The notes under the pieces are model-generated. The model had not been told where the DNA came from, did no database searches, and saw nothing but the letters and a program-made list of their open reading frames with translations. Shown one piece after another: positions 2,670-8,301 of a stretch of DNA of 10,204 bases (positions are counted from its first letter, which is position 1; every line of letters begins with the position of its first letter). Source of the stretch: a virus. Both the position numbers and the translations under genes were made by a program. Location: UHGV virus genome UHGV-0144897, one strand, 5' to 3'.

Positions 2670-3212
2670 TCACATAACCCCCAGCATCGATGTAACCATT
2701 GTCATCAGCGGCCCCACCTGCTCCGGCATGAGGCGGAACAGCGACGCTATACCCTCGCTTACCTCTTTCAGCTTCTGATGCTCCGGAGCGTCCAGCAGCA
2801 CGGCCTGCTTTGCTTCGGCACACTCTTTCATCGCAGAGGCGATCAGCGACATCGTGTCGTTCTGCGGTGCCAGGCGGTTGCGAAATTCCAGTGGAAGTAC
2901 CGCCATGATTGCGGGCGTCAGCTGGCGCACATTCTCGCGGTACTGCTCTGAGTCGAAGCGGTTATCTAGGAAGCGAAAAAGTTTCTGGCGCGCCCTGCTG
3001 ATGTCTTCCGGGAAGCTGATGGCGGTCCCGCCCTGCTCCCGGTATTCGTTGATGATCAGCGCCGAAACGACGTCCTGATTGTCCAGCGCCGATGACCATG
3101 CACGGACCGCATCGCGGATCTTTTCGTGGCCTGGCGCCGCTTTAGGTTGAGCGCGGTTTATCATTGCTCCCGGGTGTATTCCGGTATTGTGTTGATACGC
3201 AAGTGAATGCAT
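2670..3212 (-). CDS. cII-slot regulatory protein (180 aa), family uncertain (possibly the larger CII-like/YdaT-like type)
   Basis: ORF-track 2670..3212. ATG 3212..3210 with AAGGGA RBS, 30 nt downstream of the Cro-like stop. The position between cro-like and O-like genes matches lambda cII, but the protein is about twice as long and not recognisably lambda CII. Confidence 0.6.
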   Translation of the reverse strand: MHSLAYQHNTGIHPGAMINRAQPKAAPGHEKIRDAVRAWSSALDNQDVVSALIINEYREQGGTAISFPEDISRARQKLFRFLDNRFDSEQYRENVRQLTPAIMAVLPLEFRNRLAPQNDTMSLIASAMKECAEAKQAVLLDAPEHQKLKEVSEGIASLFRLMPEQVGPLMTMVTSMLGVM

Positions 3213-3241
3213 TGCTTTCCCTTTCGTGGTTAGGGCCGCCG

Positions 3242-3469
3242 TTAAGCGGCTTTTGGTTTACTGATTTCAAGAATCTGGTTTTCGGTAAACTGACCACCAG
3301 ATGCAGCTGCGATTTTGGACGCATAGCCTGTTTCGCCTGTGTAGTCGGTGCGCGGTAGGCAACCGCTATTAATCCACTTGTAAATAGCGCGGGGAGTGCG
3401 CCCGCAAGCCTTCGCCACCACCGGTACACGGATTTGTTTGATGATGTCGCCAAGGTTTTTAGGTTGCAT
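3242..3469 (-). CDS. Cro-like / YdaS-like HTH DNA-binding protein (75 aa)
   Basis: ORF-track 3242..3469. ATG 3469..3467 with GAGGG RBS. HTH-like VVAKACGRTPRAIYKWINSG. Divergent from the cI-like repressor across an operator-rich region. Confidence 0.75.
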   Translation of the reverse strand: MQPKNLGDIIKQIRVPVVAKACGRTPRAIYKWINSGCLPRTDYTGETGYASKIAAASGGQFTENQILEISKPKAA

Positions 3470-3485
3470 TTGTTAACCCTCAAAA

Positions 3486-3559
3486 TTGAACTGTAAGTAC
3501 ATATTATGTCGGAACTGATAGTTCACGCAAGTGATATTATGATTGAACCTATGGTTCAA
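3486..3559. promoter_or_regulatory. OR-like control region: three TGAAC/GTTCA-type operator dyads with divergent PR-like and PRM-like promoters
   Basis: Site A TTGAACTGTAAGTACAT (3486..3502); site B GAACT-GAT-AGTTC (3512..3524); site C TTGAACC-TAT-GGTTCAA (3543..3559). Minus-strand promoter: -35 TTGCGT (3530..3525), 16-bp spacer containing site B, -10 CATAAT (3508..3503). Plus-strand candidate: -35 CTGATA (3515..3520), -10 TATGAT (3538..3543). Site A recurs near-identically in the pL-like region. Confidence 0.45.
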
Positions 3560-4261
3560 GAAGAAAAAGCGCGTACAGAGTTTTCCCAACGGCTAGCGCT
3601 GGCCTGTGATAAAGCTGGTTTACCTGCTCATGGTCGTCAGGCTGAAATTGCAAAGCGAATGAAGCTAACACCAAAAGCAGTAAGCAAGTGGTTCAATGGG
3701 GAGGCTATTCCAAGACGTGGCAAGCTGCAGGAACTGGCGGCTATAATTGGCACATCCTCGTCTTACCTATTAGGCGATAGTGCAGCAGATGGCATATCTG
3801 AAGGGCATATGGCAATGAGGGACGATTCTTTCCGTGTAGACGTTTTTGATATTCAAGCTAGCGCTGGGCAAGGAATTCTTGTGCGAGATGAGTTCATTGA
3901 AACAATCAGATCCATAGAGTATTCAACCGAAGAGGCTCGCGCCGTATTTGGTGGGCGCCCAGCTGACCACATAAAAATGATTGCCGTGAATGGCGATTCT
4001 ATGTCTGGCACGTTCGAGCCGAGAGACCAGATCTTCGTCGACGTGAGCATCGACTGCTTTGACGGTGACGGCATATACATTTTCGTTCTGGACAATGATC
4101 TCTACATAAAGCGCCTTCAAAAGCAGCACAAAAAATTAGCTGTGATTTCAGACAACAAAAAATATGAGACCTGGTATATCGAGGATGGTGATTTTTCATC
4201 TCTTCGGATCTGCGCGAAGGTCTTGGTAAGCCAATCTAGAGCATATAGATTTCATAGCTGA
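3506..4261 (+). CDS. cI-like prophage repressor (N-terminal HTH, C-terminal S24/LexA-type autopeptidase)
   Basis: ORF-track 251 aa. HTH GRQAEIAKRMKLTPKAVSKWFNGEAIP resembles the lambda cI recognition region. S24 motifs AVNGDSMSG (Ser) and LYIKRL (Lys). No SD before any candidate ATG (3506, 3539, 3551); start may be leaderless at 3551, inside dyad C. Confidence 0.9.
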   Translation: MSELIVHASDIMIEPMVQEEKARTEFSQRLALACDKAGLPAHGRQAEIAKRMKLTPKAVSKWFNGEAIPRRGKLQELAAIIGTSSSYLLGDSAADGISEGHMAMRDDSFRVDVFDIQASAGQGILVRDEFIETIRSIEYSTEEARAVFGGRPADHIKMIAVNGDSMSGTFEPRDQIFVDVSIDCFDGDGIYIFVLDNDLYIKRLQKQHKKLAVISDNKKYETWYIEDGDFSSLRICAKVLVSQSRAYRFHS

Positions 4262-4272
4262 GGAAGTTAAGC

Positions 4273-4860
4273 ATGGAAGCAATTAAGGTTACAGATCTTA
4301 GTGATGGAAGCGGTTTGTACGAGCTTGGCGACCACTTCATCACCTGCAAATTAAGCCACGATAAACGTTGGCAACTAGGTGCTTTCAAACGTGATGAAAG
4401 CAAGCTCAGAGATGACACACTGGCGGTTTTGAAGAATGAAAAATTCATGTTTATGGTTAAGCTCGGCGGACAGCTTTCTCCCAAGCCTCAATGCATAGCT
4501 GTTAACGGGCGATTTTTATTTTCTGTCCATACCGGCAAAGACAACAACATGGCTGCAGCCATAGTCATGGATAACACCGGGAAAGAGTTATTCAAGATAG
4601 AAACTTCCACTCACCTCATCAGTTCGGCCATATCTGAATTTGGGCGCTACATCGCCCTATCGTTTGCCGGTAGCAAAAACAAAGATGATTTTTACGCGCA
4701 CCGGCTTGAGGTCATAAACATTGATACCGGAGAGGTGTTGATGTCCGTTATCAAAACAGACTTCCTTCGATACGCTGAGCTTTCAGTTGTTGAGCCAGAC
4801 GGCGGACTTTTCGCAACTTTTAATGGTCGCACAAGGCTTGTTGATGTGACGAACCTCTAA
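4273..4860 (+). CDS. hypothetical protein (195 aa) translationally linked to the repressor; rexAB-slot moron, candidate exclusion/defence gene
   Basis: ORF-track 4273..4860. GAGGAAG RBS 6 nt upstream of the ATG; starts 12 nt after the cI-like TGA. No Walker, HTH or TM segment recognised. First 60 nt are about 45% GC. Confidence 0.8.
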   Translation: MEAIKVTDLSDGSGLYELGDHFITCKLSHDKRWQLGAFKRDESKLRDDTLAVLKNEKFMFMVKLGGQLSPKPQCIAVNGRFLFSVHTGKDNNMAAAIVMDNTGKELFKIETSTHLISSAISEFGRYIALSFAGSKNKDDFYAHRLEVINIDTGEVLMSVIKTDFLRYAELSVVEPDGGLFATFNGRTRLVDVTNL

Positions 4861-4923
4861 TAAATCAAACCAGCCCCAACCCACCTCGCCCAATCAATAA
4901 AAAATTCAAAAATATTTCTCCTT

Positions 4924-5012
4924 AAAGTTCATAAAGTTAATCGTATATGAACTTTCCATTCACAAACAATGTACTTTTGGTACTTTACATGAATGAACTA
5001 TTGGTACATTAT
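4924..5012 (+). promoter_or_regulatory. pL/OL-like region: operator-like dyads and candidate leftward early promoter
   Basis: Inverted repeat AAAGTTCATA (4924..4933) / TATGAACTTT (4946..4955). TGAACT-N4-GTACAT at 4994..5009 matches OR site A (3487..3502). Candidate -35 TTTACA (4984..4989) and -10 CATTAT (5007..5012), 17-bp spacer. GTAC-containing repeats TTGGTAC at 4977 and 5001. Confidence 0.35.
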
Positions 5013-5230
5013 CAATCCATCGAAACGAAACATCGACAGCTGAGCGAAGTTAGCCAGCGGCGGAGTGGAGTTAGATGACCGCTTAGAGCCGCCACTTGAA
5101 TTTCAGCAGGTGACGGGGAGCGCGAAGGGTGAAGCGGACGTGAGAGCGTTGGCGTGACCAGCTGGAACTAAAGGTTTACCAGCAGCTCTTTGCGAGGGGC
5201 TGACGGTAAACAAACAGAGAGGTGGAAATC

Positions 5231-5947: not shown

Positions 5948-6586
5948 ATGGGCTCGGCAGCTACCGACATCATTCTTGAGAGCAAGAGAAGCCGAAAGAA
6001 AAATAAGGGGCCTGTCCACGGAGTTGGGATTATTGATGTTCCATTCAGTGTGCGCGGAACAGTAGATGGGAAAAAGATATACCACCGAGCCTTTAAGGTT
6101 TGGAACAGCATTTTGCAGCGATGCTATTACCCACCTATTCAAGCCAAGTATCCATCATACATAGGCTGCTCTGTTTCCCCTGAATGGCTGCTCTTCTCTG
6201 GTTTCCTTAAGTGGTGGAAAGCGAATTTTCATGAGGGCTGGGAAATCGATAAAGACCTCCTATTTCCTGGCAACAAGATCTACTCACCAGATAAATGCCT
6301 TTTCGTTCCATGCGATCTGAATAGTTTTGTAATCAGCCGAGAAGCAAAGCGCGGACCTTCTCCTATCGGAAGTACGTTTGATGCTCGTTATGGCGTTTAT
6401 AGGACAACTATCAGTCTTGGGAAAGGCCAAAAGCATTACTTGGGGTCGTTCGTTTGTCCAGACGAGGCATACACCGCCTGGCTCAGTGCAAAGTTGAAGC
6501 TTGCTGAGCGATTCAAACCAATCTGCGACGAGATACACCCTCAACTTTACGACAGCCTACTCACGAAAATTCGCTCGATTAAATGA
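5948..6586 (+). CDS. free-standing endonuclease-like protein with a C-terminal AP2-type DNA-binding domain (HNH/homing-endonuclease-associated type), 212 aa
   Basis: ORF-track 5948..6586. AGGAGG RBS 6 nt upstream. C-terminus ARYGVYRTTISLGKGQKHYLGSFVCPDEAYTAWLSAKLKLAE fits the AP2 signature (YxGV...GK...LGxF...EA..A). N-terminal W-x6-RC...Y-x-Y-x-G...W-x-x-F...F pattern recalls phage HNH-associated proteins. Family is recognition only. Confidence 0.75.
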   Translation: MGSAATDIILESKRSRKKNKGPVHGVGIIDVPFSVRGTVDGKKIYHRAFKVWNSILQRCYYPPIQAKYPSYIGCSVSPEWLLFSGFLKWWKANFHEGWEIDKDLLFPGNKIYSPDKCLFVPCDLNSFVISREAKRGPSPIGSTFDARYGVYRTTISLGKGQKHYLGSFVCPDEAYTAWLSAKLKLAERFKPICDEIHPQLYDSLLTKIRSIK

Positions 6587-7512: not shown

Positions 7513-7644
7513 CTCAGCAAACCGGATTGCTGATGGTTGCCATACTCTGCCTGCTGTATGACCTGCAGCCGGCAGACCTCGAATCACTGGCCCACCAGCT
7601 TGCAGAATTTGACGCAGTTAACGACCACATTACGGAGATTAAGC

Positions 7645-8301
7645 ATGTTGAGAGTTATTGATACCGAAACTACCAGCCTGGAAGGCAGTGTGCTGGAGAT
7701 TGCCAGCGTTGATATCGTCGACGGCGTTATTTGTAATCCCATGAGCGACTTTGTGAAGCCCACTGAAGCGATTAGCTTCGAGGCTATGGCTATCCACCAT
7801 ATCACTGAAGATATGGTCGCTGACGCCCCGCTGATTGGTGAGGTTATCGGTCGTTACCTTGGCGCGCAGGCTTACGTCGCTCACAACGCGAAGTTCGATA
7901 AATCGAAGCTACCACAAATCGACGCGCCGTGGATCTGCACCGCTAAGCTGGCCCGTGCTCTTCTCCCGGATCACCCAAGCCACAGTAACCAGTACCTGCG
8001 TTACAGCCTGGGCCTGAAACCTGAACTTCCGGAAGGCCTGTATGCGCACCGCGCGCTATATGACTGCTACGTCACTGCTGAATTGCTTCTGTACATGGGA
8101 CGCCTGGCGAAATGGACGTTTGGCGAAATGCGCGCCATTTCAAACAGCCCGTCACTGATTAAGGCGATCCGGTTCGGCAAGCACAAGGGCCTGACGTTTG
8201 AAGAAATTGCGAAGGTCGACCCTGGCTATCTCCGTTGGTTGTCCAGCAACAGCGACGACGAAGACATTCTCTTCACCATCAAACACTGGCTTAAGGGGTG
8301 A
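7645..8301 (+). CDS. DnaQ-family DEDDh 3'-5' exonuclease, ExoX-like (218 aa)
   Basis: ORF-track 7537..8301 begins with TTG. Preferred start is ATG 7645 with GGAGA RBS, so the protein starts at the Exo I motif MLRVIDTETT. Also YVAHNAKFD, HRALYDCYVTAELL and C-terminal FGKHKGLTFEEIAKVDPGYLRWL, matching my recollection of E. coli ExoX. Confidence 0.9.
   Translation: MLRVIDTETTSLEGSVLEIASVDIVDGVICNPMSDFVKPTEAISFEAMAIHHITEDMVADAPLIGEVIGRYLGAQAYVAHNAKFDKSKLPQIDAPWICTAKLARALLPDHPSHSNQYLRYSLGLKPELPEGLYAHRALYDCYVTAELLLYMGRLAKWTFGEMRAISNSPSLIKAIRFGKHKGLTFEEIAKVDPGYLRWLSSNSDDEDILFTIKHWLKG

Follow-up and report, generated by a model that had tools for sequence, protein, structure and literature searches.

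The CI repressor of phage HK022 binds cooperatively within the OR and OL operator regions, an observation credited to Carlson and Little (1993; summarised in PMC8053113), and DNA looping between OL and OR has been demonstrated (PMC8053113). The HK022 OR region was annotated in database record X16093 (1989; L009 in the numbering used here), which enters 430-444, 454-468, and 487-501 of L009 as 'oR potential repressor binding sites' and begins the cI coding sequence at 494, the middle base of the last of these. The record for HK75 presents the same layout of oR1-3, with oR3 at 937-951 and the cI start at 944, and cI also starts at the ATG within OR3 in the O276 record and in the complete HK022 genome (AF069308). 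The cI mRNA of λ is naturally leaderless when made from PRM (PMC3177188).

The DNA under study is a 10,204-nt stretch of virus genome UHGV-0144897 (hereafter the window), which is the early region of a lambdoid prophage. Between a cro-like gene and a cI-like repressor gene the window carries the HK022 OR architecture, here in an uncharacterized enterobacterial prophage. As the layout already is annotated in the HK022 records, its recovery is an ordinary rediscovery and no new kind of element is present. The comparison of related loci described below bears mainly on where the repressor gene starts, and on how its promoters and operators are arranged around that start.

Three related operators lie between divergent genes

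The original prediction placed three related dyads, A, B, and C, between two divergently transcribed genes, with spacings of 24 and 33 bp, and the sequence reads as was described: the dyad centers are at 3494, 3518, and 3551. The features of this region are as follows.

3242-3469, minus strand: cro-like gene, 75 aa, PHROG 35 transcriptional repressor, with the Shine-Dalgarno sequence GAGGG at 3481-3477
3486-3502: dyad A (OR1), TTGAACTGTAAGTACAT, imperfect, with a 15-bp core TGAACTGTAAGTACA at 3487-3501, over the predicted pR start
3503-3508, minus strand: pR -10, CATAAT, corresponding to X16093 L009 446-451 and containing the plus-strand ATG3506
3512-3524: dyad B (OR2), GAACTGATAGTTC, with the full 15-bp site GGAACTGATAGTTCA at 3511-3525
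3515-3520, plus strand: candidate -35 of the PRM-like promoter PM, CTGATA, with a 17-bp spacer, inside OR2; putative in function
3525-3530, minus strand: pR -35, TTGCGT, corresponding to X16093 L009 468-473 (TTGACT in that record)
3538-3543, plus strand: PM (PRM-like) -10, TATGAT
3543-3559: dyad C (OR3), TTGAACCTATGGTTCAA, a perfect dyad of 7+3+7, with the 15-bp site TGAACCTATGGTTCA at 3544-3558
3551-4261, plus strand: cI-like repressor gene, 236 aa, with HTH_3 and Peptidase_S24 domains (Pfam)

The 15-bp operators conform to the consensus TG(A/T)AC-N5-GT(T/A)CA. OR2 fills the 16-bp spacer of pR and overlaps the pR -35 by 1 bp, so that the proposed location of dyad B within the spacer of a PR-like promoter is borne out by the position of 3511-3525 between the hexamers at 3503-3508 and 3525-3530. 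The center of OR3 coincides with A3551 of the repressor start codon. A repeat finder returned a 25-nt direct repeat (3501-3525 and 3534-3558; 76% identity), which amounts to ATATTATG followed by an operator, twice, 33 bp apart.

The TGAAC-N5-GTTCA motif with at most one mismatch occurs five times in the 10.2-kb window compared to an expectation of 0.32; five matches were not attained in any of the 200 shuffles that gave this expectation. These near-perfect matches are OR1, OR2, OR3, and two sites (4948-4962 and 4994-5008) in an OL-like cluster at 4948-5008, shortly past the repressor operon. When two mismatches were allowed there were 10 matches against 4.6 expected, which is not a significant enrichment; thus, the signal resides in the near-perfect sites. 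The right half-site of OR1, GTACA, is not an error, as TGTAC/GTACA recurs in eight of 22 half-sites when those of the window and HK022 are pooled. The site scored 19.0 with a position weight matrix (PWM). There is next to no likelihood that these palindromes arose by chance in AT-rich intergenic DNA and lack a regulatory role. That OR1 is only a partial palindrome and that the motif is not enriched at two mismatches would fit such a reading. Against it, all five near-perfect matches fall in two promoter regions, relatives retain the sites at fixed spacing even where flanking coding sequence has diverged to ~75%, and their positions are homologous to the annotated repressor-binding sites of HK022, whose CI protein binds and loops OR and OL (PMC8053113).

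The region corresponds to OR of HK022

The best named match to the repressor in a tblastn search of a phage collection was HK022 cI, with 60% identity (139/233 residues) in an alignment that begins at residue 1 (MVQ...). The recognition-helix regions of the window and HK022 repressors read PKAVSKWFNG and PKAISKWFNG, respectively. The product of the divergently transcribed cro-like gene was 55% identical to HK022 Cro (40/73 aa; E = 2e-30). The homologues of this gene in RefSeq/PGAP records often are annotated only as 'hypothetical protein'. Addition of 3057 to the HK022 L009 coordinates yields the window positions of dyads A, B, and C, the pR hexamers, and ATG3551 in an alignment without an indel. 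The claim of a tripartite operator overlapping divergent promoters therefore is supported by X16093, in which three 15-bp OR sites and the -10 and -35 elements of pR are annotated at matching positions.

The two systems share half-sites, the 24- and 33-bp spacings in OR, and the positions of the pR and pL hexamers, as well as a pair of operators, OL1 and OL2, that flank the pL -35 at a spacing of 24 bp, and a far-left OL element 53 bp from OL2. Differences are evident too. Approximately 40% of the repressor residues are unlike those of HK022. OR2 and OR3 of HK022 each differ by one base from those of the window, and OR1, which in HK022 is a copy of OR3, is TGAACTGTAAGTACA with a GTACA right half in the window. 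The pR -35 is weaker in the window (TTGCGT) than in HK022 (TTGACT). A site 22 bp to the left of OL2 is near-consensus in the window and degenerate in HK022, and a 195-aa open reading frame (ORF) located between cI and OL in the window is not found in HK022. Clear counterparts of putL, putR, and nun are lacking in the window, and a YdaT-domain gene occupies the cII position.

An OFR operator past cro is present in HK022 (L009 163-177) and HK75 (614-628), and a PWM scan of 3100-3300 detected no such site in the window. As OFR is an accessory site outside the exchanged module at 3190-5070, its absence is irrelevant to the identity of OR.

Repressors of Xenorhabdus and Photorhabdus with 39-54% identity have other N-termini, and the different dyads at those loci (ATAGC..GCTAT) leave the start codon uncovered; the arrangement in which the gene starts within OR3 thus is specific to the HK022 clade. 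A 933W-like origin of the region, suggested by the annotation of the Cro homologue, was rejected: the repressors of Stx phages are only ~30% identical.

Operators and promoter hexamers are conserved among related loci

Related loci were compared without gaps: the 96 loci yielded 51 unique upstream sequences and 40 unique OR segments. Most of the 96 were recovered by matching peptide patterns, MVQEEKAR among them, and the sample therefore is biased toward a conserved N-terminus. The phage matches obtained by BLAST, among them HK022, are free of this retrieval bias and agree with the loci derived from patterns. As the loci share phylogeny, the counts given here and below are of non-independent events.

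No indels were observed in 3487-3565 in any of the 96 loci. Among the 40 unique OR segments, conservation was 91-100% in the pR hexamers, in the operator half-sites, and throughout OR2, and the operator centers, 3531-3537, and 3549-3550 varied. Of the 40 unique relatives, 39 had unchanged OR1 half-sites around a variable center, 36 had an identical OR2, and 39 had an unchanged left half of OR3. Within OR3, the third base of the Val codon (3556) did not vary either.

The repressor gene probably starts within OR3

The repressor reading frame contains ATG codons at 3506, 3539, and 3551, and automated annotation is inconsistent in its choice among them. In RefSeq/PGAP records the coding sequence is 756 nt in E. 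coli GB089 (3506 start, 251 aa) and 723 nt in strains 1218KP, ET846, and H6 (3539 start, 240 aa).

L005 4306-5061, L006 1338-2060, L007 1292-2014, and L008 1340-2062: E. coli repressor coding sequences, RefSeq/PGAP, 251 or 240 aa

None of the 51 unique upstream sequences lacked ATG3551. AAG or ATA stood in place of ATG3506 in four of them, and ATG3539 was replaced by ATT, AAT, ACT, or ATA in 16, including HK022. An Enterobacter sp. lineage (L087 and L013) possesses neither upstream ATG and has the consensus hexamer TATAAT at 3538-3543. The distribution of variable columns by codon position also was informative. From 3551 to 3700 there were 8, 6, and 35 variable columns at first, second, and third positions, respectively, of 50 each (variability 0.044, 0.040, and 0.25), compared to 3, 4, and 5 in 3506-3550, where each codon position has 15 columns (variability 0.064, 0.069, and 0.088). 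The excess of third-position variation from 3551, and the lack of such an excess in 3506-3550, indicate that the coding signature begins at 3551.

According to the competing interpretation, a leadered mRNA is translated from ATG3506, yielding 251 aa, or from ATG3539, yielding 240 aa, in which case 3506-3550 is coding sequence and dyads B and C are intragenic. The PGAP calls of 756 and 723 nt favor this interpretation, as does an uninterrupted frame from 3506 onward in each of the 51 unique relatives. Nevertheless, we judge it very improbable: either upstream codon can be lost, both are missing in the L087/L013 lineage, and third-position excess is lacking in 3506-3550. Moreover, the promoter hexamers account for the partial conservation of the two codons, as ATG3506 doubles as the CAT of the pR -10 CATAAT, and ATG3539 sits inside the PM -10 hexamer. 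A start at 3506 also would leave just 36 bp for two divergent promoters, and every curated HK022-type record uses the ATG in OR3. There is a minor possibility that an N-terminally extended repressor is made from long, establishment-type transcripts where ATG3506 or ATG3539 is retained.

The suggestion that the start codon sits inside dyad C thus agrees with the HK022, HK75, and O276 records, with the universal presence of ATG3551 in the relatives compared, and with codon periodicity from that position. The accompanying estimate of ~28 residues ahead of the helix-turn-helix is in keeping with the Pfam result, in which the HTH_3 alignment begins at residue 30 of 236.

A probable promoter for the repressor gene ends close to the start codon

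The only match to a promoter scan in this region was CTGATA-17-TATGAT, with nine of 12 positions matched. The four hexamers are ordered pR -10 (3503-3508), PM -35 (3515-3520), pR -35 (3525-3530), and PM -10 (3538-3543), such that the pR and PM -35 hexamers are interleaved and the predicted starts are ~55 bp apart. In the 40 unique segments the hexamer at 3538-3543 was TATGAT in 28 and TATTAT in eight, with TATAAT, TAATAT, TACTAT, and TATAGT as the other variants. T1, A2, and T6 were invariant and positions 3-5 varied, and the flank at 3531-3537 was the most variable stretch. The hexamer therefore appears to vary as a sigma-70 -10 element would. In a published cI expression clone of HK022, which begins with ATGGTTCAACAG, the label 'PM-10' stands beside the sequence just upstream (PMC8053113 supplement). 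The conserved bases and this label sustain the proposal of a PRM-like -10 at 3538-3543; the likeness to PRM did not extend to the geometry of activation in λ, which is discussed below.

Two other candidates in this interval were discarded: an extended -10 element, TGaTATTAT (3532-3540), which is not conserved in relatives, and a second minus-strand promoter that employs CATAAT at 3541-3536, which on inspection has no usable -35. In a search for a λ-type pRE, TTGC-N6-TTGC repeats were not enriched, and cro had no exact site nearby. No statement on the PM start site was found among the HK022 papers searched in full text; HK022 promoters reportedly were mapped by Cam et al. (1991).

T3550 and A3551 are 7 and 8 nt, respectively, downstream of the end of the 3538-3543 hexamer, and the base that precedes A3551 is a pyrimidine in most relatives. 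No Shine-Dalgarno sequence precedes 3551, as the upstream sequence GATATTATGATTGAACCT is devoid of a GGAG-like element. The repressor mRNA is likely to be leaderless or nearly so, judged from this geometry: the end of the -10 is close to A3551, a Shine-Dalgarno sequence is absent, and the start codon always is AUG. A leader of 1-5 nt would be compatible with the same geometry.

We therefore weighed a variant of this reading that keeps the operators and the 3551 start but gives the message a short, A/U-rich, unstructured leader (start at ~3546-3550) or derives it from another promoter. The commonest distance from a -10 to a start, 7 nt, would put the first base at T3550, and an alternative hexamer, TATTAT at 3535-3540 with TG upstream, would direct a start near 3547. 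However, neither the TG nor the 3535-3540 hexamer is conserved and 3531-3537 is the most variable stretch, whereas ATG3551 is invariant and unaccompanied by a Shine-Dalgarno sequence. Start-site choice generally favors a pyrimidine-purine step, which at 3550/3551 would make A3551 the +1, and this also counts against a short leader. We regard this alternative as unlikely. In contrast, we hold with considerable confidence that the locus possesses an HK022-type OR in which the repressor starts at ATG3551 in the center of OR3, and that the lysogenic transcript begins at the AUG or within a few nucleotides of it.

A second operator set accompanies pL

A position-weight scan of the half-sites, together with alignment to HK022, established the homology of OL and pL with those of HK022. 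The features are as follows.

4917-4931: far-left OL element, TCTCCTTAAAGTTCA, 53 bp center-to-center from OL2, corresponding to HK022 L009 1209-1223
4948-4962: additional OL operator, TGAACTTTCCATTCA, one mismatch to consensus, 22 bp from OL2
4970-4984: OL2, TGTACTTTTGGTACT, corresponding to HK022 L009 1262-1276
4984-5012, plus strand: pL, -35 TTTACA at 4984-4989 and -10 CATTAT at 5007-5012, corresponding to HK022 L009 1276-1281 and 1299-1304
4994-5008: OL1, TGAACTATTGGTACA, inside the 17-bp pL spacer, corresponding to HK022 L009 1286-1300

The HK75 record designates as oL3 a degenerate counterpart, TGAGCTTTTTATACC (L103 1690-1704), of the window site at 4948-4962. The OL2-OL3 spacing reported for HK022 is 53 bp (PMC8053113). 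The name 'OL3' thus differs by source, denoting the 22-bp site in the HK75 record, whereas the 53-bp spacing fits the far element; the window contains both. A weak operator-like sequence, GGAACTAAAGGTTTA, at 5164-5178 (plus strand; PWM 11.6) lies ~160 bp past pL, outside the module, and could be due to chance.

A short core, GGGAGCGCG..GGGT at ~5113-5131 (plus strand), aligned to putL and putR of HK75. The sequence here, CGGGGAGCGCGAAGGGT at 5113-5131 (plus strand), resembles the conserved core GTCGGGAGCGCGGCGGGT of putL and putR in HK022 and HK75. Predicted folds of the 5113-5131 region were unlike those of putL and putR, and 5098-5165 folded better than shuffled sequences (z = -2.4). An Rfam scan of the window with E ≤ 1 produced no match. 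It was equally empty for HK022 and HK75; Rfam thus lacks a put family, and the scan says nothing on the presence of put RNA. Overall, a convincing put RNA was not found in the window, and no nun gene was seen.

The immunity module and its flanks

OR, the repressor gene, and OL are contained in a conserved, exchangeable immunity module at ~3190-5070. Two further genes within or adjacent to it are listed here.

2670-3212: YdaT-domain gene, 180 aa, at the cII position, with a phi80-like 5' end
4273-4860, plus strand: ORF between cI and OL, 195 aa

On the left flank, the YdaT-domain gene in the cII position is followed by genes for replication protein O and a DnaC/IstB-like loader. The module boundary is near 3190, where a phi80-like segment and the YdaT-domain gene take the place of cII, putR, and OFR of HK022. 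The right flank consists of genes of the early left operon. These include HNH-endonuclease-like (PHROG 953) and RNase_T/ExoX-like exonuclease genes, at 5948-6586 (plus strand) and 7537-8301 (plus strand); at that position E. coli relatives have recombination genes of the gam, recT, and λ-exo type.

The 195-aa ORF had no match in Pfam, PHROG, or PADLOC. The ORF occupies the position of λ rexAB inside the exchangeable module, and HK022 has no gene there. It probably is co-transcribed with cI, and may be considered a candidate accessory or exclusion gene expressed in the lysogen. The best nucleotide matches to the window were Enterobacter genomes and IMG/VR contigs, with E. coli prophages matching at up to 96%; the host of the prophage probably is Enterobacter.

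Comparison with λ and a model for regulation

The locus shares with λ three dyad operators that lie between divergent cI and cro genes and overlap both promoters, a 24-bp OR1-OR2 spacing, a second operator set at pL, and a cI start that has no Shine-Dalgarno sequence and is just past the maintenance -10. The operator sequence is unrelated to that of λ, and the geometry differs. Measured upstream from the cI ATG, the operator centers are at 19, 42, and 66 bp in λ, where that ATG also is the PRM +1, and at 0, 33, and 57 bp in the window. OR3 of λ ends 10 bp before the ATG, whereas in the window OR3 covers the start codon and the predicted +1. OR2 and OR3 are separated by 33 bp in the window and by 23 bp in λ, and the pR and maintenance starts are ~55 bp apart, with interleaved -35 hexamers, compared to ~80 bp in λ. 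OR2 is not near -42 of the maintenance promoter, the position from which bound repressor activates in λ: a distance of 33 bp separates its center (3518) from A3551, and the site overlaps the only -35-like hexamer of that promoter. OR3 is centered at ~+1, and not within the interval between the maintenance -35 and -10. The switch thus appears to be λ-type in outline while departing from two geometric features that define positive autoregulation in λ.

By homology to HK022, which is the basis for assigning occupancy to repressor or Cro, the following model can be envisaged. The cI-like repressor would bind the three 15-bp dyads, as presumably would the Cro homologue. Repressor on OR1, at the pR start, and on OR2, which fills the pR spacer and touches the -35, would switch off cro and the lytic genes, and repressor on OL1 and OL2 would block pL, the operator set at 4917-5008 governing this promoter. 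The PM -10 at 3538-3543 would direct a transcript that begins at or near the AUG, with translation independent of a Shine-Dalgarno sequence, in the manner of λ cI from PRM. Binding of repressor or Cro to OR3, across the +1 and AUG, would turn down the repressor gene, which in the case of the repressor would constitute direct negative autoregulation; OR3 also is the probable site at which Cro shuts off repressor synthesis.

A further step, which we put forward tentatively as possible if somewhat doubtful, is that the logic of the HK022-type switch differs from that of λ by virtue of the interleaved promoters, the placement of OR2 on the PM -35, and autorepression at the +1 and AUG. As OR2 lies on the PM -35 at -33, the repressor on this reading could not activate its own synthesis by the contact mechanism of λ. 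If so, PM expression would depend on relief from competition with pR, on a promoter that is independent of its -35, and on leaderless translation. Additionally, the stronger third OL site and the loss of OFR in the Enterobacter variant could alter looping between OL and OR.

Implications for the repressor family

The comparison fixes the likely start codon for a widespread family of enterobacterial prophage repressors, with a protein of 236 aa here compared to 251 or 240 aa in RefSeq; both of the extended RefSeq versions lengthen the N-terminal arm that contacts DNA. It also predicts that operator specificity, and perhaps immunity, is common to this prophage and HK022. Finally, the analysis supplies a comparative map based on 40 sequences of a switch in which an operator is superimposed on the +1 and AUG of the repressor's own gene, which offers a contrast to λ for the modeling of phage switches.
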